The notes beneath the pieces were generated by a model. The model worked only from the letters and a program-made list of their open reading frames with translations. It made no database searches and was not told the DNA's origin. Both the position numbers and the translations under genes were made by a program. A stretch of 64,000 nt of DNA from Candidatus Woesearchaeota archaeon (GTDB lineage: Archaea > Nanobdellota > Nanobdellia > SCGC-AAA011-G17 > UBA489). Position 1 is the first letter of the stretch; every line of letters starts with the position of its first letter. This document shows, in pieces, positions 19,105 to 30,784 of this stretch. Location: the NCBI GenBank assembly GCA_964366415.1, contig CAYITG010000001.1, positions 515,203-579,202 of the forward strand. The letters are read 5' to 3'.

Positions 19105-20010
19105 TTGTTACCAAATCTTCATGTTATGAATATACGTAAAGGAATTCTTTTTGTTCTTATCTCTACTTTAATGTTTGGAAGTTATGGCGTTTGGTCGAAA
19201 CTTATTGGAGATTCTTTTGGTATATTTTATCAAAGTTGGAGTAGAGCATTAATCATTGCTTTGCTTTTATTTCCTTTTCTTCTTTGGAAAAAACTTATAG
19301 TGCCTATTTCTAAAAAAGATCTTACATGGTTCATTGTTTTTTTATTTTTTACATCACTTACACAAGCCCCTATTTTTTATGCATTTAATCATATGGACAT
19401 TGGGTCGGCAACATTACTTTTCTTTGTCAGCATGTTGTTGACGATGTATATCGTAGGCATACTCTTTTTAGAAGAAAAACTCACAAAGATCAAAATTCTT
19501 TGTTTTGTACTTGCCGGGATAGGATTATATATTATCTTCTCTTTTTCATTAGTATTATTTTCTCTTTTAGCTGCAGGTTTAGCAATAATTAATGGAGTTG
19601 CAAGTGGAGGAGAAGTTTCTTCATCTAAAAGATTATCTCGACATTATTCTACACTTTACCTTAGCTGGTGGAGCTGGGTTATTATCATTTTAACTAATGC
19701 CCCTCTATCTTTTTTCTTAGGAGAAGTCCAACATCTTCCTTCTTTTGATATAGTGTGGCTGTATCAATGGGGATATGTTTTTGTTAGTATTTTTGGATTC
19801 TGGCTTATCCTTGAGGGAGTAAAATATCTTGAGGCGAGCATTGCTGGATTGCTTGGACTTCTTGAAGTCGTGTTTAGCATCACACTTGGAATACTCCTTT
19901 TTAATGAAGAATTAACGGTTAAGATCATCATCGGTGCTTCTTTTATTATTTGCGCGGCCGCATTGCCCCATATTATTGATCTTTGGTCAACATACAAACA
20001 TTCCTCATAG
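19105..20010 (+). CDS. EamA/DMT-family transporter
   Basis: 10 TM helices; duplicated EamA-like halves. Confidence 0.6.
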   Translation: MLPNLHVMNIRKGILFVLISTLMFGSYGVWSKLIGDSFGIFYQSWSRALIIALLLFPFLLWKKLIVPISKKDLTWFIVFLFFTSLTQAPIFYAFNHMDIGSATLLFFVSMLLTMYIVGILFLEEKLTKIKILCFVLAGIGLYIIFSFSLVLFSLLAAGLAIINGVASGGEVSSSKRLSRHYSTLYLSWWSWVIIILTNAPLSFFLGEVQHLPSFDIVWLYQWGYVFVSIFGFWLILEGVKYLEASIAGLLGLLEVVFSITLGILLFNEELTVKIIIGASFIICAAALPHIIDLWSTYKHSS

Positions 20011-20045
20011 TAAATTATATAAAGGATGCTCTGTCTTCTTCTTTT

Positions 20046-20744
20046 ATGCAATTACGTGTGCAAAAGAAGCCTAAGAATCCTATCATCATCGAGGGATTTC
20101 CCGGTTTTGGATTGGTAGGAACTATTGCTACAGAATTCTTGATCAAACATCTTGACGCTGAACCGATTGGACTTATTCGCCTTGATGAAGTTCCTCCCGT
20201 GATCGCTGTACATAAAGGAGAACCTGTTGAACCTTTGGGAATTTTCTATGCAAAGAAACAAAACATCGTTATCTTGCATGCATTAAGCAGTGTTCAAGGA
20301 TATGAATGGGGACTTTCAGAATTATTAGGAAAACTTGCAAAAGATTTGAATGCGAAAGAGGTTATCAGTCTTGAGGGTGTAGGAAGTGAAGTTACCTCTT
20401 CTCAACCACGCGCATTTTTTATGGGAAAGAAGGAAAAACAATTAAAAATGACTGGAGCATCGGCTTTACAAGAAGGCATTATTATGGGAGTCACGGGAGC
20501 CTTGCTCTTACGAAAAGATCTTCCCCTTACCTGTTTCTTTGCCGAAACACATTCTGCTTTACCTGATTCTCGCGCAGCAGCGAAGCTTATCGAAATTCTT
20601 GACAAGTATTTAGGATTAAAAGTCGATTACAAACCTTTACTTGAAAAAGCAGAGAAATTTGAAGCAAAAATAAAAGGCTTATTACAGAAGGCGCAAGGTG
20701 CTACACAAATGGCTGAACAGAAAAAGCAAACCTATATCGGCTGA
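20046..20744 (+). CDS. PAC2-family (proteasome assembly chaperone-like) protein
   Basis: IIIEGFPGFGLVGTIATEFLIKHL... matches the archaeal PAC2 N-terminal signature. Start taken at MQLRV (20046). Confidence 0.5.
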   Translation: MQLRVQKKPKNPIIIEGFPGFGLVGTIATEFLIKHLDAEPIGLIRLDEVPPVIAVHKGEPVEPLGIFYAKKQNIVILHALSSVQGYEWGLSELLGKLAKDLNAKEVISLEGVGSEVTSSQPRAFFMGKKEKQLKMTGASALQEGIIMGVTGALLLRKDLPLTCFFAETHSALPDSRAAAKLIEILDKYLGLKVDYKPLLEKAEKFEAKIKGLLQKAQGATQMAEQKKQTYIG

Positions 20745-21222
20745 GATTATCTTTTTATCTTTATTATTGATTATGTTAGCTGGTTGTAGTAGTTCTGGAT
20801 CTATTAATGACGTTGCAGAGCCGGTTGTTCGCAATGAAGAACTGAGTGCACCTTTGGGTGCTGCTACCGTTATCATTCATGATAAAACCATCGCTGTTGA
20901 ACTTGCAGATACTCCGGAAGAACGGATTCAAGGATTAATGAATCGCGAGTCTTTATGCGCATCTTGCGGTATGTTATTTGTTTTTCAACAAGAAGGAACA
21001 CATGGTTTTTGGATGAAGAATACCTCTATTCCTTTGGATCTTATTTTCATTAACAAAGAAGGCGTTATTGTTGATATTCTTGCAGCAGAACCTTGCAAAG
21101 AAATGAGTTGTCCTACTTATTCTTCTCAAAAACGAGCATTGTATGTTTTAGAAGTGAATAAAGGAATGAGCACACAACATGCATTTGCTGTTGGGCAGAA
21201 AGTAGCTCTTAATCTGAACTAA
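20698..21222 (+). CDS. DUF192-domain lipoprotein
   Basis: Signal peptide with lipobox LLIMLAGC; DUF192-like IAVELADTPEERIQGLM...MLFVF...FWMKNTSIPLDLIFI. Confidence 0.6.
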   Translation: MLHKWLNRKSKPISAEIIFLSLLLIMLAGCSSSGSINDVAEPVVRNEELSAPLGAATVIIHDKTIAVELADTPEERIQGLMNRESLCASCGMLFVFQQEGTHGFWMKNTSIPLDLIFINKEGVIVDILAAEPCKEMSCPTYSSQKRALYVLEVNKGMSTQHAFAVGQKVALNLN

Positions 21223-21227
21223 TGTTC

Positions 21228-22049
21228 CTACAAATTATCTAAAGGGCTTTTTATTTTCTTTAATTGCTCTGTCGACACTTTAGTGTAACGTTGAGTCGTG
21301 CTCAAATCAGCATGTCCAAGCAATTCTTGAATATACCTAATATCTGTTCCTGCTTCCAACAGATGGGTAGCAAAGCTACTGCGCATAGCATGGGCAAAAA
21401 CTCTTTTCCTGATGCCTGCTTTCTTGGCAGTATTGGTGACGATACGCTGCGCCATTCGCACGGAAAGATGATTTTTATGGCCTGGAAACACATAAGGCGA
21501 TTCTTGTTTTCTTTTATCCAGATACTCCTGCAGATTTTTGATTAATGTTTCTGAGAGAATGATGTGGCGGTCTTTTCTTCCCTTCCCAGCAATCACACGC
21601 CCCATTTTTTCCTTAAGATCAAGATCATCAATTTTTATTCTTACGCATTCTGAAACACGCATCCCTGACGCATAAAGAAATTCCAATAACAGACGATGTT
21701 TCTTATTCTTGGCTGCTCCAAGCAATAGTTTCATTTCTTCTTTTGTCAACACTGTTGGCAATTTTTTTTCTATCTTAGGGGGCGTGATATCATCAAAGAT
21801 CTTCTTCTTGAGCACATCTTCATAGAAAAAACGTAATGCAGAGATCGTAAGATTGACTGAAGTGGCCTTACTTTGCTTTTCAGCCATTAAGTATGCAAGA
21901 TATGTTTTTACATCAAGCCCAGTTATAATCTCCGGTTCTTTTTTAATGAATAGTAAAAAATTTTTATTGTGAATGAGATATGCACTCAGTGTTGCTGATG
22001 TGTATCCTCTTATTTTTAATTCTGTTTCAAGAATTTTCAGATCAGTCAT
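21228..22049 (-). CDS. xerA: tyrosine recombinase XerA/XerC-like
   Basis: C-terminal catalytic R..HxxR..Y: HAMRSSFATHLLEAGTDIRYIQELLGHADLSTTQRYTKV. Confidence 0.8.
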   Translation of the reverse strand: MTDLKILETELKIRGYTSATLSAYLIHNKNFLLFIKKEPEIITGLDVKTYLAYLMAEKQSKATSVNLTISALRFFYEDVLKKKIFDDITPPKIEKKLPTVLTKEEMKLLLGAAKNKKHRLLLEFLYASGMRVSECVRIKIDDLDLKEKMGRVIAGKGRKDRHIILSETLIKNLQEYLDKRKQESPYVFPGHKNHLSVRMAQRIVTNTAKKAGIRKRVFAHAMRSSFATHLLEAGTDIRYIQELLGHADLSTTQRYTKVSTEQLKKIKSPLDNL

Positions 22050-22085
22050 TCTTTATTGCAGTAACAACATTCTTTATAAACTCTG

Positions 22086-23876
22086 TTGTCCTTTTGTCTT
22101 TTCATGATAGAGGTGAAGAAACAGCAACTTCAATTTTTGAATATTTTGCGTCTTATTGTCAAAAGTCTTTTTTCGCAGTATAAATGGCGATTTATTGGTG
22201 TTCTTTTTGTTGCTGCATTGGCAGGAGGATTACAAACATTAACGCCTAAGATTCTTCAGCAGATTATCGATTTACTTCTGGCTGGAACAAAGACTTTATC
22301 GGAGTTCTGGTGGTTATTGCCCATCTATCTCTTTGTATATCTTGGAGCGGCGTATTTTGATTTCATATCGGGAAGGATTGTGTATTACCTAGCAATGAAA
22401 ATTGAAGATTATTGGAGATTTCGAGCGTTGCACCACTACTTCCAATTGCCGTTATCCTGGCATGATCAGCATGAATCTGGAGAGATCGGATCTCGTATCG
22501 ACAGGGCCGGATCAGCGATATTTTCTATTATTGCAGAACTCTTTGGCCACAACATTATTGTTTCTTTATTTACTCTTTTATTCATTCTCATTTTCACGTT
22601 TACGCAAGCGCCTCTTGTTGGTTTGATCTTTTTACTACCCTTGCCCTTGTATGGGCTTGTGACTTATGTTTTATCCATGAGAATTGCCAAAGGACAAGTA
22701 AAACTAAACAAATTAGCAGATCGTGCACAACGCACACTTTTTGATGCTACTGGAAATATACGCACAGTCAAATCTTTTGGAAAAGAACAGGAAGAAGTTG
22801 CCCTTTATGCAAGGCGATGGACTTCATATCATGACTCTGATTACGAAGTTGAACGCTTATGGTTGCGACAGTCTATTTTCCAAACGACCATTGAAGCGAT
22901 TTCGCGTGTCTTGCTTCTCGCCTATTGTGTGTATTCTTTTGTTAAGGGAACATTGAGTGTGGGACAGATTGTGATGTTCTTAAGTTATCAACAGTTGTCT
23001 TTCTCACCTTTAGCCTTGCTTACATATATCTTCACACGCGTACGACGTTTGGTGAAACGAGCAAGTCAACTCTTCAAGATTGCAGCTGAACCGGATCCTA
23101 TGGCGGATATTGAAGATGCAGTTACACTGCCTGTTCTGCGCGAGGGCATTACCTTTAATCATGTAACGTTCAGGTATCATGGAAAAGTGCACGCACTGAA
23201 AGATCTTACCTTCTCTCTGAACAAGGGAAAAACTGTTGCTCTTGTAGGGCGCAGTGGAGCTGGGAAGAGTACGATTGCAGTTTTAGCGCTGCGTTTCTAT
23301 GATCCTGATGAAGGTGCTATTTTATGGGACGGTATTGACATTAAGAAAGCCACACGAAAGTCATTACGTGAAAGAATTTCTTATATCCCTCAAGATTCTG
23401 TCCTCTTTAACCGCAGTATTTATGACAATATTGCCTATGGCACGAAACATGCAACAAAGGAGAAGGTGATACGAGCTGCGAAGATGGCACATGCTCACGA
23501 TTTTATTTTGAAAACACCCCAAGGATATGCGTCCGTTGTTGGAGAACGCGGCGTTAAATTGTCTGGAGGACAACGACAACGTATTGCCATTGCGCGGGCT
23601 TTACTTGCACAACCTAGTCTCCTTATCATGGATGAATCTACCAGTCATTTAGACAGTGAAACTGAAAGCGCGATCCAAGATTCTATTCGTTATCTTCATG
23701 GAAAAACTACGCAGCTTATTATTGCGCATCGATTATCAACGATCTTACATGCAGACCTAATTCTTGTTGTAGACCAAGGAAAGATTGTGGCTGCTGGAAC
23801 ACACCAACAACTGTTAAGGAACCCTATTTATAAGAAATTATACAATCTTCAGTTCAAGCGAGAGAAACCCTTATAA
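22086..23876 (+). CDS. ABC exporter, fused TMD-NBD (MsbA-like)
   Basis: 6 TM; Walker A GRSGAGKST; signature LSGGQRQRIAIARA; Walker B LLIMDE. Confidence 0.8.
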   Translation: MSFCLFMIEVKKQQLQFLNILRLIVKSLFSQYKWRFIGVLFVAALAGGLQTLTPKILQQIIDLLLAGTKTLSEFWWLLPIYLFVYLGAAYFDFISGRIVYYLAMKIEDYWRFRALHHYFQLPLSWHDQHESGEIGSRIDRAGSAIFSIIAELFGHNIIVSLFTLLFILIFTFTQAPLVGLIFLLPLPLYGLVTYVLSMRIAKGQVKLNKLADRAQRTLFDATGNIRTVKSFGKEQEEVALYARRWTSYHDSDYEVERLWLRQSIFQTTIEAISRVLLLAYCVYSFVKGTLSVGQIVMFLSYQQLSFSPLALLTYIFTRVRRLVKRASQLFKIAAEPDPMADIEDAVTLPVLREGITFNHVTFRYHGKVHALKDLTFSLNKGKTVALVGRSGAGKSTIAVLALRFYDPDEGAILWDGIDIKKATRKSLRERISYIPQDSVLFNRSIYDNIAYGTKHATKEKVIRAAKMAHAHDFILKTPQGYASVVGERGVKLSGGQRQRIAIARALLAQPSLLIMDESTSHLDSETESAIQDSIRYLHGKTTQLIIAHRLSTILHADLILVVDQGKIVAAGTHQQLLRNPIYKKLYNLQFKREKPL

Positions 23877-23900
23877 AGATTATAGTCCTTTTCTTCTTTT

Positions 23901-24482
23901 ATGATATCAAAACAACAGACTGTTCAGCTGATTACGAAAGACATGACTATTGGAAATGTCTTTGAACAGTATCCTCAGAAAGCTGCGCAACTTGCAGAGG
24001 TCATGACTGCACATGGCTTGCATTGTGTTGGATGTCATGTCAATGTGTTTGAGACGATTGAACAAGGCATTTTAGGGCATGATATGGATACAAAACAATT
24101 AGATTCTTTATTGAAAGGCATGAATGAGGTATTAATGAGAAAAGAAGAACCCATTACTGGAGGCATACGATTAACTCCTGCTGCCGTTGAGAAGGTAAAG
24201 GAACTGCAAAAGAAAGAAAAGAAACACGATATGGGATTGCGTGTTGCTGTAGAAGCAGGCGGATGCGCAGGGTTTAGCTATGCTTTGTATTTTGATAAAG
24301 CCATGAAAGGCGATACTGTTATCAAACAAGCGGGAATCCAGGTTTATATTCAACCAGACGCAGCTCAGAAATTACAAGGAAGTGAAATTGATTACGTTGA
24401 TGGATTACAAGGCGCTGGCTTTAAATTCAATAACCCTAATGCGAAGAAAGCATGCGGATGCGGACATTCTGCTGGATTTTAA
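23901..24482 (+). CDS. DUF1858 domain fused to IscA/HesB-type Fe-S cluster carrier
   Basis: N-terminal TIGNVFEQYPQ...GLHCVGCHV (DUF1858-like); C-terminal LRVAVEAGGCAGFSY...CGCGHSAGF (IscA/ErpA signature). Confidence 0.7.
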   Translation: MISKQQTVQLITKDMTIGNVFEQYPQKAAQLAEVMTAHGLHCVGCHVNVFETIEQGILGHDMDTKQLDSLLKGMNEVLMRKEEPITGGIRLTPAAVEKVKELQKKEKKHDMGLRVAVEAGGCAGFSYALYFDKAMKGDTVIKQAGIQVYIQPDAAQKLQGSEIDYVDGLQGAGFKFNNPNAKKACGCGHSAGF

Positions 24483-25623
24483 AGAGAATATTGCAATAAG
24501 AGGTGTTGCCTTTTCATACTTTTAATATATGAATTGACTTCTGCTGTTGATATCTCCTCTGGAAATTTTGTTTTTAACATTTTAAGTATTTTAACTCTTA
24601 GTCTATACGTATTTGCATGCTTCATATGCGCACATGTTCCTTGCATACTCTCATACACTTGGTCGTATGTTAGATCTTTATCTGCATATTTCTGATAAAG
24701 TTTGTGTACTCTCCTTTGCACATTTCTTCTGTTAAATCTCTTTAGTAATTTATAATGATAAAATATTTTTATGCCTAGAAATGCTATAGGTTTTCCTAGG
24801 GATATGATTTTAGATTTTCCAGCGTGCAATTCTATCTTTAGTCTTTCTTTCAGGAAAATATTAATCCTTTCTTTCCATTCTTGCAATTGACTTCTTGAAG
24901 AATGAAGAACAGTGAAATCATCAACGTATCGTATGTAATATTTTGCTCTTAGTTCATGCTTGATGAATTGGTCCAATTCATTTAAGTAGATATTCGCAAA
25001 AAATTGAGAGGTAAGATTTCCCAAAGGCATACCTGTCTTGACATTGCCCCCCCCCCTTCGTAATTCGAAAGAATTTTTCTTACAAGCCAAATTGTTTTAT
25101 AGCATCGTATTTTCTTTTTTAGGATTTCAAGAAGGATGTGGTGATTGACTGTTTCGAAATAGTGCCTGATATCGGCCTTTAGACAATAACCTTTCACTTG
25201 ATTGTTGGTAAACCAACCATTTATTTTACCATTTCTTGAGATTTTTCTTTTGAATTGGTCATATCGTTTGAGTGCTGCCAGTGTTCCCTTTCCTTTTCTG
25301 TTTGCATAAGAATCATAGATGAATGATTTTTCGTAGATTGGTTCTAGGACTTGACAGAGGGCATGATGGACAACCCTATCCCGAAAGTCTGATTTGCTGA
25401 TTTTTCTTGTCTTTGGATCTCTGATAACGAATGTCTTGAGGGGTTTTGGTCGGTATGCGTGAAACAAGAGTTCCGTTCTTAGAGAAGAAATGTTTTCTTC
25501 AAGGTTTTGTTCAAATTCTTTTACATACTCTTTTTTTGTTTTTCCTTTTCTAGCATTTCTATATGCTCTGTATAAATTTTCTTCTGAAATTATTTCTTGG
25601 TAAAGATTTTTGTATGTTTTCAT
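24479..25623 (-). CDS. DGR reverse transcriptase, frame broken at a G10 homopolymer (fragments 24982..25623 and 24479..25090)
   Basis: RT motifs LYRAYRNARKGK (domain 0), VIRDPKTRKISKSDFRDRVVHHAL, DIRHYFETVNHHIL, GMPLGNLTSQFFANIYLNELD (DGR-type I/LGxxxSQ motif 4), YIRYVDDFTV (motif 5). The frame shifts at C10 on plus (25047..25056). The ORF-track N-terminal extension to 25701 is a translation of the TR. Confidence 0.75.
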
Positions 25624-25651
25624 ATGGTCTGTCTTAGTTTCTAGGGCTATT

Positions 25652-25738
25652 CCAAAAGCATAACCGTTGTTGTTGCCATGGTTGTTACCATTGACATTCA
25701 ACCTGTGATCGTCATTCCAATTGGAATTAAGAGCCGAG
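25652..25738 (-). repeat. DGR template repeat (TR)
   Basis: ~87 nt that match the target 3' end (25964..26056) except at coding-strand adenines; lies 29 nt upstream of the RT start. Confidence 0.8.
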
Positions 25739-25933
25739 GGCAGTTATGTAGCTCGTTCATTATATGTAAACCACCACCATTTCATTGTTCAGAACATGCT
25801 TACTAAATGTTATGGTTGTATTATATGGCATTGCTGCACTATGAACGAACATGTAGCCCTAGCAGAGCTAGCAGATTACTAACCCCTCTAAGACAGTATA
25901 AAGAAAAAAAAGAATTGCTTAAAAATTTTGCGA

Positions 25934-25946
25934 CTGGCTATGCCAG
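25934..25946 (-). other. hairpin (CTGGC-tat-GCCAG) just 3' of the VR and target stop
   Basis: Perfect 5-bp stem with 3-nt loop, 5 nt after the stop codon and 18 nt after the end of VR homology. Confidence 0.4.
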
Positions 25947-25950
25947 TTGT

Positions 25951-26631
25951 TTACGGACGTACCCCAAAAGCACAACCGCCGTCGTCGCTGCTGCCATGGA
26001 CGTAACCACTGACACTCAACCTGCGACCGTCACTCCAATAGGAATAAAGAGCCGAGACTCTCGTGGTTGGTTCATCAGTTGATCTGAGACTCCACAGATA
26101 AGGTTTCTTTCCATGTTTATCGGCTATTTCTGCTAACTGTTCTGCACCTTCTTGTCCGACAAGCGCTTGAACATACACATTCTTTGCTAATTCTAAAGAC
26201 GACATAGATTCTGTTTTGAAGCCGAAGGGAACAAAACGAACTGTAGGATCATTGGATTCTAGCTTTTTGACAAGATCTGATTGTTCCATGAAAGGCATGC
26301 CATTTCTGATGGCAGGATGATCTTGAATATAGGCTCCTTTGTTGGGAACATATAATGTTCCTGTAAAGCCCCATAACCAGTTGCTTTTCATGAATTTCTG
26401 TATTTCTGTGCTGTATTTGTCATCGGAATAGAAAGCAGCATGGACTAAAGAAACTGTTTGTGCTAAAGTGGGAGTTGTTAATCCTGCTTGTTCGATGGAT
26501 GATTTAACATTGACATATGTATTGGGACCATACTGGGGATGGATGAAGGTTAATTCTTTACCTTGATGAGGAACTGTAAGCTCTGTACGTCCTTCTTTGA
26601 CTTGTAATCCTTTATTTTGTATTGTGTTCAT
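25951..26631 (-). CDS. DGR target (variable) protein; C-terminal VR region likely CLec-like ligand-binding fold
   Basis: C-terminus ...SALYSYWSDGRRLSVSGYVHGSSDDGGCAFGVRP is encoded by the VR. The TR encodes the Asn-rich NSNWNDDHRLNVNGNNHGNNNGYAFG. SD GGAG 8 nt upstream of the ATG. Confidence 0.7.
   Translation of the reverse strand: MNTIQNKGLQVKEGRTELTVPHQGKELTFIHPQYGPNTYVNVKSSIEQAGLTTPTLAQTVSLVHAAFYSDDKYSTEIQKFMKSNWLWGFTGTLYVPNKGAYIQDHPAIRNGMPFMEQSDLVKKLESNDPTVRFVPFGFKTESMSSLELAKNVYVQALVGQEGAEQLAEIADKHGKKPYLWSLRSTDEPTTRVSALYSYWSDGRRLSVSGYVHGSSDDGGCAFGVRP
25964..26056 (-). repeat. DGR variable repeat (VR) at the 3' end of the target gene
   Basis: Aligns to the TR with ~15 substitutions, all at TR A positions (plus-strand T>C or T>A), plus a 6-nt indel in the (CAA)n / CAGCAGCGACGACGGCGG tract. 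Confidence 0.8.
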
Positions 26632-26775
26632 TGTTGATCTCCTTTTGATATTATGATTATGATGTTGTTATTAAGATTAAACTCCTATTTAAATCTTTCT
26701 ATTTGTAACCATTTAATAGTAGTTATAACTTCTTAAGCTAAATGTTTATAAACTTAACCATAGTTAAGGTTTTCT

Positions 26776-27186
26776 ATGTCCCACCGGTTATTGCTACACC
26801 CACAGGAAATTGAAGTCTTTTACATACTTCCTGCTTTGCGAAGGCAGCTAGTTATATTCATGAAAGAACGTGGTTTGAAACAAAGAGATATTGCCCGATT
26901 ACTTGAGATTAATGAAGCTGCTATTAGTCAGTATCTTAGCGGCAAGCGAGGGCATCAGATTGATTTTGGAGGGAAGATTCTTGACGAGATTCAACACTCT
27001 GCGCAGCGCATTACTAACCAAGGAACATTCTTGATGGAAATGCAACGCTTGTTGAAAGTTATTCGCGAATCAAAAGTGCTTTGCCAGATTCACCGTCAAT
27101 TTTCGACTGTCCCTAGTGAATGTGATCCATTTGCAACAGGATGCATTGAGAAGGAGGATTTAGTACATGTCACCGCAAAAAACTGA
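26776..27186 (+). CDS. XRE-family HTH regulator with C-terminal Cys-containing domain (putative suf regulator)
   Basis: HTH LKQRDIARLLEINEAAISQYLSGKRG; TATA TTTATAAA ~25 nt upstream of the ATG; overlaps the sufB start. Confidence 0.55.
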   Translation: MSHRLLLHPQEIEVFYILPALRRQLVIFMKERGLKQRDIARLLEINEAAISQYLSGKRGHQIDFGGKILDEIQHSAQRITNQGTFLMEMQRLLKVIRESKVLCQIHRQFSTVPSECDPFATGCIEKEDLVHVTAKN

Positions 27187-28573
27187 TTTTGTCATGGATC
27201 GATCGAAGTATGATGAGGCAAATCCTGATAGATCGGTCTATGTTGCAAAGCCTGGATTGACACGAGAGCTCGTTATTGAAATTTCAAAACTAAAGAATGA
27301 ACCTGATTGGATGCTGCAAAAAAGGTTACAGGCGTTTGCATACTTTGAGAAGACATCATTGCCAACATGGGGGCCAGACTTAGGAAAACTGGATTTAGAC
27401 TCCATTACATACTTTGTAAAGCCTAACGCAAAGGAATCGACATCATGGGATGATGTGCCGGAGGAAATCAGGAGAACTGCTGAGAGAATTGGTATCCCTG
27501 AAGCCGAAAGAAATTCTTTAGGCGGAGCTGGTTATCAATATGATTCTAGTGTTGTTTATCACAACATCAAAAAAGATCTTGAAGAGAAAGGAGTGATCTT
27601 TGAAAATATGGATGTTGCTGTGCAGAAATATCCTGAGATGGTAAAAAAATATTTTATGACAAAATGCATTCCTATCAATGATCATAAGTTTATCATGTTA
27701 CATGGAGCAGTATGGAGTGGTGGAACGTTTATTTACATTCCTCCTGGCGTTAAAGTTGATTTGCCGTTACAAGCTTATTTCAGAATGAATGCGCAAAGTG
27801 GCGGGCAATTTGAACATACATTGATTATTGCAGACAAGGGGAGCGAAGTGAATTACATTGAAGGATGCTCAGCACCACGGTTTGAGAGAAGTGCTTTGCA
27901 TGCCGGATGTGTAGAATTGTTTGTACTTGAAGGAGCAAAGATTCGTTACATGAGCATTGAAAATTGGAGCAAGAACACTTATAATTTAAATACAAAAAGG
28001 GCGATTGTTGAAAAGAACGGACGTGTTGAATGGTTAAATGGCAATATGGGATCAGGCACAACGATGCTCTATCCGTGCAGCGTTCTTGTTGGTGAAGGAG
28101 CAAGTTCTGATAGTTTAGGTATTGCCTTTGCGGGCGCAGGACAGAACCAAGACACAGGATCAAAAGTCATTCATGCCGCGCCTTATACAAGTTCTGTTAT
28201 TCGCGCCAAGAGTATTAGCAAAAGCGGAGGCGTGTCAACCTATCGCGGACTTGTTAAGGTTATTAAAAAAGCAAAACATACCAAAAGCAGCATTACTTGT
28301 GATGCGTTGCTTATTGATGCACAATCACTTTCTAATACCTATCCTTTTATGAAAATTGATACCAATAAAGTGGATATTGCGCATGAAGCCACTGTTGGAA
28401 AGATTGGAGAAGAAGAGATTTATTATCTCATGTCGAGAGGATTAACAAAAGAACAAGCAACACAGATGGTTGTGAATGGATTTATTGCACCTGTCATCAA
28501 AGGGTTGCCTTTAGAGTATGCAGTTGAGCTCAATAAACTTATTGAGTTAGAAATGGAAGGAAGTGTAGGATAG
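27167..28573 (+). CDS. sufB: Fe-S cluster assembly protein SufB
   Basis: 468-aa SufB/SufD-fold beta-helix with conserved C-terminal region. Confidence 0.9.
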   Translation: MSPQKTDFVMDRSKYDEANPDRSVYVAKPGLTRELVIEISKLKNEPDWMLQKRLQAFAYFEKTSLPTWGPDLGKLDLDSITYFVKPNAKESTSWDDVPEEIRRTAERIGIPEAERNSLGGAGYQYDSSVVYHNIKKDLEEKGVIFENMDVAVQKYPEMVKKYFMTKCIPINDHKFIMLHGAVWSGGTFIYIPPGVKVDLPLQAYFRMNAQSGGQFEHTLIIADKGSEVNYIEGCSAPRFERSALHAGCVELFVLEGAKIRYMSIENWSKNTYNLNTKRAIVEKNGRVEWLNGNMGSGTTMLYPCSVLVGEGASSDSLGIAFAGAGQNQDTGSKVIHAAPYTSSVIRAKSISKSGGVSTYRGLVKVIKKAKHTKSSITCDALLIDAQSLSNTYPFMKIDTNKVDIAHEATVGKIGEEEIYYLMSRGLTKEQATQMVVNGFIAPVIKGLPLEYAVELNKLIELEMEGSVG

Positions 28574-28586
28574 GTGACATATTTGT

Positions 28587-29555
28587 ATGCTACCGAAAAA
28601 TTTCGTTATGGACATTGAACATAAAGATATTGAAGCTATGCCTCTTTCTACAGCCTTTGTAACTTACAGAAAGGAATTAGAAAAGATGTTAGGAGATAAA
28701 GCAATAGATGTCAAGCATGGAATGTTCATGAGAATTCCTGCAGGAAAACATATTCTTGTTCCTTTACATGTGAATGTTCATCTCAGCACATCTGAAAGTG
28801 ATATCTTAGTTATTATTGCAGAACCAGAGAGCAATATTACTCTTATTGATGCTGTTACAAGTGATTCTTTTACAGGAACACATTCAAAGGGAATATATCT
28901 CTTAGCACAAGAAAAGGCATTTGTTCATTACATTTCTGTACAGTGTGTTTCAGATACTATTGTTCATACAACGAATCGAAAAGCAACTGTTGAAAAAGAT
29001 GCATGTGTGCAATGGACAGAGTGCCAGCTTGGAGGAAGTTCAGTTACTTCACATACTGTAACGTCATTGAGGGGCGAAGGAGCATCATTATTTCATCGCA
29101 CGCTCTTCTTGGGAGAACACCAACGGAAACTTACTTTTAATACGCAAGCATTGCATGAGGCATCACATACGACAAGCAGATTGTTTATGAATGGTGCATT
29201 AGCTGATCGCGCCGATGCTACAGCACATGGATTAATTAAAATTAATAAAGACTGTGCTCATTGTGATGGATATCAAAAACAACATACCCTTTTACTCAGC
29301 GAAGAAGCAAAAATGGATCCTGTGCCTATGTTGGAAATTCACAATGATGATGTCAAATGCAGTCATGCAACAGCTATCACTGATGTTGATGAAGAACAGT
29401 TACACTATATGATGTCCCGAGGACTTGATCAACAGCAAGCGCGCAAACTTATTGTTGAAGGATTCTTCGAACCTATCTTACGAGAGATTAAAGACACCTC
29501 TGCAGAGAATATTCGAGAATATCTTGCTAAAAAGGTTGAGGAGATTGTATGTTAA
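28587..29555 (+). CDS. sufD: Fe-S cluster assembly protein SufD
   Basis: SufBD-family paralog downstream of sufB. Confidence 0.75.
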   Translation: MLPKNFVMDIEHKDIEAMPLSTAFVTYRKELEKMLGDKAIDVKHGMFMRIPAGKHILVPLHVNVHLSTSESDILVIIAEPESNITLIDAVTSDSFTGTHSKGIYLLAQEKAFVHYISVQCVSDTIVHTTNRKATVEKDACVQWTECQLGGSSVTSHTVTSLRGEGASLFHRTLFLGEHQRKLTFNTQALHEASHTTSRLFMNGALADRADATAHGLIKINKDCAHCDGYQKQHTLLLSEEAKMDPVPMLEIHNDDVKCSHATAITDVDEEQLHYMMSRGLDQQQARKLIVEGFFEPILREIKDTSAENIREYLAKKVEEIVC

Positions 29556-30784
29556 AGACGAACATGTTGGATGCAGAACAGCTTCGAAAAGATTTTCCTC
29601 TCTTGCAAAGAGAAATTCATGGCAAATCTTTAGTGTATTTAGACAATGCTTCAACAACACAAAAACCTGTAGAAGTCCTTGAAAGCATGGAAAGGTACTA
29701 TTCCTGGTATAATGCTAATATTCATCGTGGAGTGTATGTTCTGAGCGAGGAAGCCACTCTTGCTTACGAACAAGCTAGACAGAAAGTTGCTGATTTTATT
29801 CATGCTGATTATCATGAAATTATTTTTACCAAAGGAACAACAGAGTCTTTGAATTTACTAGCATATTCTTTAGGAAAGACGTTATGCGAAGGAGATGAGA
29901 TTGTTTTAACTGAAATGGAACATCACAGCAATTTAGTTCCTTGGCAACAGATTGCATTAGAAAAGAAATGTATCTTGAAGTTTATTCCTGTCAATGCAGA
30001 AGGACGTGTCGATCTTAACGTTGCACGAAATATGATTACCAAGAAGACAAAGATTGTGAGCGTCACTCATGTCTCAAATGTTATGGGGACGATTGCTCCT
30101 TTGAAAGAATTAGAAGTATTGACGCATAAAAAAAATGCTTTATTCATTGTCGATGGCGCACAAGCTGTTGCTCATCTTTCTGTAGATGTTCGGGAGTTGA
30201 ATTGTGATTTTTATGCTTTCTCTGGACACAAGATGTTTGGACCAACCGGTGTTGGAGTTTTGTATGGAAAAAAAGAACATTTAGAACACATGTCTCCTTT
30301 CTTGTATGGCGGGGATATGATTCGAGAAGTTCGTTATGAAACTTCAACATGGAACGATGTTCCTTGGAAATTTGAAGCTGGCACGCCAAATATTGCGGGC
30401 GTTATTGGATTAGGGATGGCTATTGACTATCTGATTATGATAGGAATTGATACTATTCGCCATCATGAAGAGATGTTAACAACTTATGCCTTAGAGCAGT
30501 TACAGAAAGTACGCAATATTACTCTTTATGGCCCTAAAAATACAACGATGCGGAGTGGAGTCATTTCCTTTACTCTTGAAGGCATTCATTCTCATGATAT
30601 TGCAACTCTCCTTGATAGAGAAGGCATTTGTGTGCGAGGAGGACATCATTGTGCCATGCCTTTAATGAAGAAATTGGGCATTACAGGAAGCACCCGCGTG
30701 AGTTTTTCTATCTACAACACAAAAGATGATGTCGATAGATTAGTACAGGCGCTTGGACAAGCTCAGAAGGTGTTTCGCGTATGA
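29549..30784 (+). CDS. sufS: cysteine desulfurase SufS (class V aminotransferase)
   Basis: PLP-lysine motif SGHKMFGPTGVGVLYGK; catalytic-Cys region RGGHHCAMP. Confidence 0.9.
   Translation: MLKTNMLDAEQLRKDFPLLQREIHGKSLVYLDNASTTQKPVEVLESMERYYSWYNANIHRGVYVLSEEATLAYEQARQKVADFIHADYHEIIFTKGTTESLNLLAYSLGKTLCEGDEIVLTEMEHHSNLVPWQQIALEKKCILKFIPVNAEGRVDLNVARNMITKKTKIVSVTHVSNVMGTIAPLKELEVLTHKKNALFIVDGAQAVAHLSVDVRELNCDFYAFSGHKMFGPTGVGVLYGKKEHLEHMSPFLYGGDMIREVRYETSTWNDVPWKFEAGTPNIAGVIGLGMAIDYLIMIGIDTIRHHEEMLTTYALEQLQKVRNITLYGPKNTTMRSGVISFTLEGIHSHDIATLLDREGICVRGGHHCAMPLMKKLGITGSTRVSFSIYNTKDDVDRLVQALGQAQKVFRV

Follow-up and report, generated by a model that had tools for sequence, protein, structure and literature searches.

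A poly-G tract as a proposed contingency switch in the reverse transcriptase of an archaeal diversity-generating retroelement

Phase variation by poly-G tracts is classical in bacteria, and in Campylobacter jejuni the length of such tracts ranges from G8 to G13. Short tandem repeats in mutL of Salmonella constitute a repeat-controlled mutator switch. Diversity-generating retroelements (DGRs) are, to our knowledge, the only natural system of targeted protein hypermutation in prokaryotes; they are carried in great numbers by organisms of the DPANN group and of the Candidate Phyla Radiation (CPR), and an accessory protein (Avd or HRDC) is not universal among them. For archaea, phase variation was listed as still to be explored in a 2025 review (PMC11868660). 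Isolated DGRs with a frameshifted reverse transcriptase (RT) were reported by Schillinger et al. 2012 (PMC3521204) and were taken as recent death or as sequencing error. This paper will focus on a DGR in a 64,000-nt stretch of contig CAYITG010000001.1, assigned to a Candidatus Woesearchaeota archaeon and referred to as the window, in which the RT gene is split into two reading frames at a run of ten G. We consider it probable that this run is a real and evolutionarily maintained simple-sequence contingency tract, which makes the RT of the DGR phase-variable with OFF as the default state.

The tract and the split reverse transcriptase gene

On the minus strand of the window, the RT gene reads ...TCG AAT TAC GAA GGGGGGGGGG CAATGTCAAGACAGGTATGCC..., with exactly ten G at 25056..25047, corresponding to a C10 run at 25047..25056 of the plus strand. 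A run scan identified this homopolymer as the sole run of G or C longer than 6 within the 64-kb window, and G10 was absent from 100 of 100 dinucleotide-preserving shuffles of the window; GGG is the least-used Gly codon in its long open reading frames (ORFs), with 13%. The run is proposed to be the hypermutable tract which sets the frame of the RT. Two ORFs at 24982..25701 (with an ATG at 25623) and 24479..25090 overlap at the tract and split the RT, as had been described in the initial annotation for fragments at 24982..25623 and 24479..25090, and tblastn assigned RT residues 1-193 to frame -2 but residues 191-381 to frame -1. The N-terminal frame with RT motifs 1-3 (24982..25623, minus strand) starts at the ATG at 25623, reaches its stop 22 codons beyond the tract, and encodes a fragment identical to the public protein P0121. 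The C-terminal part (24479..25046, minus strand) lies in the other frame, contains GMPLGNLTSQ (motif 4), YVDD and the thumb through to the stop, and has been annotated publicly as 'RNA-directed DNA polymerase' (P0124). The tract itself is hosted by the coding sequence of a surface loop of variable length, SNYEGGG(G)NVKTG (25031..25068, minus strand), just before GMPLGNLTSQ and hence between motifs 3 and 4, where it had also been placed initially.

Replacement of the tract in silico confirmed the earlier prediction that a length of 8 or 11 G restores a single RT, since G8 gave a continuous protein of 380 aa and G11 one of 381 aa. With G9, G10 or G12, truncated products of 213-215 aa are obtained; for frame repair in this organism, G10 requires +1 nt, while G9 and G12 require -1 nt. 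The repaired RT matches Pfam RVT_1 (E 8e-24) with a match spanning the repaired protein, and its best match among solved structures is the Bordetella DGR bRT 8ub7 (E 3e-22). In the AlphaFold model of the repaired RT, which is confident overall (mean pLDDT 85.9), a helix and motif 4 are connected by a coil of lower confidence which contains the tract-encoded residues. No further RT or DGR able to act in trans was identified in the window by tblastn.

The split gene is part of a complete DGR, with the order target-TR-RT on the minus strand. The template repeat (TR; 25652..25738, minus strand) comprises 87 nt with 26 adenines, and the variable repeat (VR; 25964..26056, minus strand) comprises 93 nt at the 3' end of the target gene (25951..26631, minus strand), which ends 13 nt beyond the VR and codes for a protein of 226 aa with a C-terminal VR ending in ...CAFGVRP. 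The features of a DGR are therefore present with an RVT_1 protein containing GMPLGNLTSQ, an adenine-limited TR/VR pair and a VR at the 3' end of the target ORF. Inspection of the ORFs revealed no Avd-like or accessory ORF between or beside target, TR and RT, and no search with hidden Markov models was made for Avd. A second VR haplotype was identified in other assemblies, with a target protein of 224 aa (P0126). In both haplotypes the VR carries substitutions relative to the TR solely at TR adenines, the window VR having in addition a 6-nt insertion, and the two haplotypes also differ from each other solely at TR adenines.

The six extra nucleotides of the window VR (25989..25994), which are present neither in the TR nor in the other haplotype, represent two AAC-derived codons, the window VR reading GGC AGC AGC GAC GAC GGC compared to GGC AAC AAC AAC in the TR. 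VR indels adjoining AAC repeats were described by Wu et al. 2018, and judged from its sequence the insertion would fit a slippage of the RT on AAC repeats as in that study. It was further observed that the RT frame is open upstream of its ATG through the TR (25624..25701), so that many annotated homologous RTs begin with a TR-encoded ...NVNGNNHGNNNGYAFGIAL... sequence. The N-termini of the homologues P0008, P0012, P0018 and P0020 are TR-encoded in this manner, which perhaps is only an artefact of gene calling.

Further assemblies of the same organism were found by means of the N-terminal RT fragment proteins; they derive from groundwater of the Hainich well H52 and from two additional sequencing runs. 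Compared to G10 in the window, the tract is G12 in an 813,862-bp contig (L001), in a 2.8-kb contig from another filter fraction (L002) and in a Logan assembly (L003), and it is G9 in the Logan assembly of an SRR run (L007). An 85.8-kb contig (L005) ends inside the tract, and in scaffold ERZ1292617 (L004, 4570-4644) the site consists of G12, CA, N10, an artefactual C51 and AATGTC. The flanks are 100% identical across the versions with G9, G10 and G12, and none of these lengths is in frame. In an alignment of 20.6 kb between the window and L001, 20 positions differ, 18 of them in the VR (including the 6-nt indel) and the remaining two being extra G's in the tract; no other difference was identified across these 20.6 kb outside the VR and the tract. 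This showed that the DGR rewrote its target, and that the tract changed its length, before ordinary substitutions accrued. At the level of assemblies, mutagenic retrohoming is thus recent, and the element was active on the same timescale as the change in the tract. Between L002 (1130-1777) and the window, the sole substitution is a Cys-to-Tyr exchange in the RT near 25340 (HHALCQ to HHALYQ).

The same data bear on two other explanations, which had both been listed in the initial annotation. In the first, the true tract would be in frame (G11), and its length would be misreported by Illumina reads or by the assembly consensus. A NextSeq 500 with two-colour chemistry was used for the Hainich libraries (PMC8672522), the C51 artefact and a scaffold gap are located at the site, contigs break at the tract, and the lengths of 9, 10 and 12 bracket 11, all of which speaks for such an error. 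However, four assemblies yielded G12, including two of separate filter samples, and G11 was never recovered. The C51 of L004 is non-biological and resembles a poly-G read artefact of two-colour Illumina sequencing which was joined by the scaffolder; it led the gene caller to a spurious 'intact' RT of 402 aa with a poly-Pro insert.

The second explanation holds that the RT is a young pseudogene after a recent and irreversible inactivation, and that the DGR is dead. None of the assemblies of this organism has an intact frame, and the sporadic DGR RTs with a frameshift described earlier, whose TR/VR pairs were clean, received this interpretation (Schillinger et al. 2012, PMC3521204). However, the VR has diverged between genomes which carry out-of-frame tracts, with nothing else different in the 20.6 kb compared. 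Both explanations were further assessed with the related RTs described below.

Repeat tracts in related archaeal reverse transcriptases

Metagenome contigs were scanned for tracts of at least G9 with back-translated GMPLGNLTSQ no more than 33 nt downstream. At least 120 related archaeal RT loci were identified with G9-12 in the loop before this motif, with a mode of 10, and viral contigs (IMG/VR) gave zero matches. Among the matches listed, 86 loci are open for 100 codons or more to either side of the tract; of these, 20 are in frame, 41 need -1 and 25 need +1. After deduplication, 19 of the matches listed are in frame, 38 have one base too many and 22 too few, so that about 75% of these tract loci are out of frame. 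The excess of one shift direction in the counts of 38, 22 and 19 was considered as a sign of programmed frameshifting; it is mild (p ~0.02, estimated by chi-square) and, as only tracts of at least G9 were selected, confounded; it was not used.

The tract-bearing RTs are about 60% identical to each other in their C-terminal 150 residues, with a minimum of 41%, and are intermixed with tract-free RTs. This deep divergence implied that perfect homopolymers have persisted or re-arisen, and this in genomes of 23-46% G+C. No other run of G or C of 8 or more was found in 654 kb flanking the tract loci; long G tracts are specific to the RT.

In ten groups of near-identical loci, with flanks at least 97% identical, the length of the tract could be compared between assemblies. 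In seven of the ten, independent assemblies agree on the length, also where it is out of frame, which shows that the assembled lengths are not noise. In the other three, namely the organism of the window and two groups of relatives, the lengths differ, and one of these groups contains a pair with an in-frame and an out-of-frame allele (L198 with G9 and L095 with G10). Contig ends are located within 8 nt of the tract for 10 of the 120 matches listed. Another main-loop tract (L047, 1203-1330) consists of G9 followed by scaffold N, and its GMPLGNLTSQ frame has a TAA ten codons upstream of the motif, so that this assembly looks unreliable or broken beside the tract.

The initial annotation had proposed to check orthologous RTs for a conserved Gly run. 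Among homologues with about 65% identity, the loop before GMPLGNLTSQ varies in length and sequence; about 13% of the intact relatives encode GGG or GGGG in the loop, and others ERERER. A nucleotide homopolymer was thus found to be conserved in a minority of the relatives, but no amino-acid motif. A Gly-run motif at the protein level was rejected, because G(n)CGAA is translated in either of two phases, to GGGRT or to GGGGER. After the tract, the bases C-G-A-A are conserved in 93%, 88%, 84% and 69% of the loci (L088-L207), followed more weakly by C with 56%. Since these bases are read as GGG-CGA-ACx or as GGC-GAA-CGx, the conservation is at the nucleotide level. A run of T4-6 is often present 7-10 nt further on, as judged by eye and uncounted.

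Repeats of this kind are not restricted to poly-G or to one loop. In the main loop of one RT gene, (GA)14 places the two halves in different frames, and it is identical in two independent assemblies (L208, L209). At the second loop, a frameshift is present at G10 in L080 and an out-of-frame G11 in L210. In a sample of 80 RT loci from GTDB representatives, which were ranked by tblastn score and thus biased towards intact ORFs, 14 have runs of G or C of 7 or more in the RT gene or at its edge, located at five or more positions (about aa -3, 138, 185-193, 240-250, 266 and 355); by chance, less than one such run would be expected in 82 kb according to our estimate. One of the closest GTDB representatives, which are 63-74% identical, has its frameshift at an A8 run in the FKKKVS region and not at a G run (L076, 3375-3402). 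Where poly-G is found elsewhere in the RT gene (L046:3411, L080:3719, L210 gene nt 797, L065:3704, L014:3746), it has the flanks of the main-loop tract, TTC/ATT-G(n)-CGA(A/T). On the basis of these sequences, the common flanks at different sites suggest a common origin or a constraint, not a random growth of homopolymers.

When proteins were searched with the N-terminal half, 119 truncated RTs were obtained, and 121 were classified after P0112 and P0121 had been added. Of these, 55 end just past the main-loop poly-G and 11 past GG, 31 past ERERER or SLSL encoded by (GA)n, and 12-13 past the poly-G of the second loop (...LLSWGGGD...), so that about 110 of 121 end at such repeats; more than 50 show an out-of-frame translation of GMPLGNLTSQFF. 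This list is a catalogue of truncated forms and is biased, since it contains only short proteins, while full-length relatives, which score up to 317 bits, are absent from it.

The out-of-frame genes are otherwise intact. Among the matches listed, 63 complete genes remained after dereplication, of which 47 are out of frame, and in 45 of these 47 a single G more or less restores an ORF of at least 330 codons, with a length as in the in-frame genes. TR/VR pairs were compared in 54 loci; out-of-frame loci have 516 mismatches at adenine sites and 56 others, in-frame loci 155 and 13, which corresponds to a rate of non-adenine mismatches of 1.7% and 1.2%, respectively. In the C-terminal halves of out-of-frame genes, the median ratio of nonsynonymous to synonymous substitution rates (dN/dS) is 0.17 for 130 random pairs. 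A relative which also has an out-of-frame G10 (L129) is about 79% identical to the window RT in the N-terminal half, and between these two dN is 0.10 and 0.25 for the two halves, with dS saturated. With one lesion per gene, clean TR/VR pairs and low dN/dS, the out-of-frame genes are not decaying pseudogenes; they are intact apart from the tract and under purifying selection.

An irreversible inactivation is contradicted by these family data: the tract is the sole lesion in nearly all complete out-of-frame genes, selection has acted downstream of the break and on both halves of the window RT, perfect tracts persist across RTs of only about 60% identity, and non-A mismatches are no higher in out-of-frame loci. 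A dead element is therefore regarded as highly unlikely. A simple error of sequencing or assembly is likewise considered very unlikely, since the out-of-frame lengths of relatives were reproduced across independent assemblies, (GA)14, which is not a homopolymer, is identically out of frame in two assemblies, and a consensus-level error rate of about 75% would be needed across many projects.

A third explanation would be a split enzyme, in which two separately made polypeptides combine to an active RT, with translation of the second beginning at the conserved Met of GMPLGN. The ATG of this residue (M199, at least 90% conserved) is located just past the loop, and gene callers annotate a product of 183 aa which starts there. 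However, relatives lacking a repeat conserve the Met to the same degree, a ribosome-binding motif with a usable spacing was not evident by eye, and in-frame alleles exist in relatives. In addition, tracts around aa 138, 250 and 270 and at the 5' end lack such a restart codon, which makes a split RT unlikely, and we rate it as extremely improbable.

Proposed reversible switching and possible RNA-level recoding

The common denominator of these loci is a perfect G(n) or (GA)n repeat, whose unit length is not divisible by three, located in one of several tolerant loops. Slippage at the DNA level is the only process which acts on both G(n) and (GA)n, and for this reason the model of a contingency locus was chosen. 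Several features of such loci are present, namely a perfect repeat in the coding region and a length polymorphism among near-identical genomes; ON and OFF alleles both occur among the relatives (L198/L095, and 20 of 86 in frame among the matches listed), whereas the organism of the window shows OFF only. The breaks of contigs and scaffolds at the tract, and the 2 tract and 18 VR differences beside zero SNPs in 20.6 kb, may be indirect signs of a length heterogeneity within the population. Three findings argue that the switching is reversible and maintained by selection: repeats have been recruited recurrently, both halves are under purifying selection, and TR/VR pairs are as clean in OFF loci as in ON loci.

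In the proposed mechanism, slipped-strand mispairing during replication would alter the length of the tract, and each change would move the C-terminal catalytic half (motifs 4-7) into or out of frame with the N-terminal half. Such mispairing is expected on G10-12 whether or not it is used. The length changes would arise in the DNA within the population, the ON lengths in this organism would be G11 or G8, and all assembled consensus lengths (G9, G10, G12) would be OFF. RT would be made only in a minority of cells which have slipped to an ON length and which presumably exist in this organism, and slippage of RNA polymerase or of the ribosome on the tract may add a leaky expression. The target gene would then undergo adenine-directed retrohoming in rare bursts and not continuously, so that switching would throttle mutagenesis. 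The position of the tract in a surface loop of the RT would tolerate the variation in length.

Several observations weigh against this reading. An in-frame version of the window RT was absent from a collection of 15 billion proteins in a full-length search, and exact look-ups of the G7, G8, G9, G11, G13 and G14 products, some of them with two alternative starts, found none in this collection; we infer ON cells here and have not observed them. Only two VR haplotypes were seen. The two-colour chemistry of the NextSeq 500 and the C51 artefact indicate that the tract is difficult to sequence in the Hainich data. The proportions of ON and OFF alleles are not unbiased, because the metagenome scan demanded G9 or more, and because tblastn and protein rankings are biased by the integrity or the length of ORFs. 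Finally, the stable out-of-frame lengths in 7 of the 10 near-identical groups fit a recoding equally well as a switch which is mostly OFF.

Recoding at the RNA level is the strongest competing explanation, given that different samples agree in their out-of-frame lengths and that an ON allele was not seen here. The gene would be constitutively out of frame, and full-length RT would be produced mainly via slippage of RNA polymerase or via ribosomal frameshifting, in a manner similar to Thermus dnaX, to transposases of IS elements or to the rescue of endosymbiont genes with poly(A) frameshifts. In line with this, out-of-frame lengths were assembled reproducibly in independent samples, and although the frame is broken in about 75% of the loci among the matches listed, these genes are otherwise intact and subject to purifying selection. 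Transcription is known to slip efficiently on runs of at least 9, and a 5'-adjoining hairpin can be stimulating (Atkins et al. 2016, PMC5009743). In one subclade (L093, L104, L130, L153, L192), hairpins of the form AATTTGCC-nnnn-GGCAAATT in the 26 nt upstream abut the tract, with 8-9 bp and -7 to -10 kcal/mol. However, a strong hairpin is present in only about 8% of the loci, without an overall enrichment, and slippage cases in the same review concern A/T runs (PMC5009743). Both shift directions and in-frame states occur in close relatives, which shows that there is no fixed programmed shift. In addition, (GA)n in the same loop behaves alike, and (GA)n repeats are poor slippage sites for polymerase or ribosome. 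A general upstream hairpin which stimulates slippage was examined as a candidate and rejected, since beyond this 8% the minimum free energy of the upstream 26 nt is not below that of control windows; a stem enclosing the tract is weakly enriched. Recoding as the main route therefore appears possible but rather unlikely. A further variant is regarded as unlikely: the out-of-frame state would be the functional default, RT would be made only by RNA-level slippage on G(n) or (GA)n in an obligate archaeal recoding, and the common TTC-G(n)-CGA module would have reached its five or more positions through an active insertion process, possibly mediated by the RT, and not through independent point mutations.

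A slipped-strand switch had been the third explanation in the initial annotation. Support for it was obtained from the lengths of 9, 10 and 12 in otherwise identical assemblies, from the activity of the DGR on the same timescale, from the family-wide occurrence of the tract and from the intact genes under selection; an ON allele of this organism has never been seen.

Genomic neighbourhood and comparison with known systems

The DGR cassette is located within a neighbourhood of SUF Fe-S genes (19983..30784), with an IscA/HesB-DUF1858 gene on one side and a gene for a helix-turn-helix regulator upstream of sufB and sufD on the other side. A gene for a PAC2-family proteasome-chaperone protein is also present among the neighbours, and an XerC/D-type integrase is encoded at 21228..22049, about 2.4 kb from the cassette. 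The public names of RT relatives are Nanoarchaeota and Woesearchaeota, and by their sequences the SUF and PAC2 neighbours together with the RT homologues point to a DPANN archaeon.

If the proposed switch is correct, the repeat-gated RT would be a two-tier device of evolvability, in which a stochastic switch picks the cells that hypermutate and thereby limits the cost of a constant adenine mutagenesis. Archaea would thereby also provide a clear example of simple-sequence phase variation. For the detection of DGRs, tract-split RTs are of practical relevance, because surveys demanding an intact RT ORF would miss or misclassify such elements, and annotation pipelines call the split RT as two genes. 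A control of the RT by frameshift or repeat is not mentioned in the DGR literature searched (Wu 2018, Roux 2021, Paul and Yao 2022, Schillinger 2012), which agrees with the initial statement that a poly-G control of an RT is undescribed. We rate as new a contingency repeat which gates a DGR in archaea, for which no published description was found.

Compared to the DGRs which have been described, such as Brt/TR/VR of Bordetella phage BPP-1 and those of the DPANN/CPR surveys (Wu et al. 2018, Roux et al. 2021), the locus shares the GNLTSQ-type RT, the adenine-limited TR/VR pair and the C-terminal VR. It differs in that the RT ORF is interrupted by a repeat tract and that an Avd-like ORF was not visible by ORF inspection. 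The cases of Schillinger et al. resemble it in their broken RT with a clean VR/TR pair differing only at adenines; in contrast to these, the break here is at a conserved repeat, occurs in well over 100 lineages and affects genes under purifying selection.

A functional gene which is out of frame at a DNA homopolymer is also known from programmed slippage in Thermus dnaX (T9), Roseiflexus IS630 and endosymbiont poly(A) runs, and the hairpin directly 5' of the run in one subclade is comparable to that in Roseiflexus IS630 (PMC5009743). Unlike programmed slippage, the RT loci have no fixed direction or size of the shift, include in-frame alleles and use (GA)n as a substitute for G(n), and the hairpin is not general.

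The closest similarity is to the simple-sequence contingency loci of C. jejuni, Neisseria and Haemophilus. Common to both are a perfect G homopolymer in the coding region with a length in the G8-G13 range of C. jejuni, an AT-rich genome and the toggling of the reading frame, as are lengths which differ between near-identical genomes, ON and OFF alleles among relatives, and a tolerance of ±3 nt. However, the bacterial loci switch surface or restriction-modification genes, while the gene here codes for the RT of a targeted hypermutation system; in addition, the hosts are DPANN archaea, and OFF dominates with about 75% of the loci among the matches listed. Switches of the mutL type are similar in that a hypermutable repeat turns a mutation-generating function on and off, but they act on genome-wide mismatch repair, whereas the tract described here would act on a site-directed diversifier.

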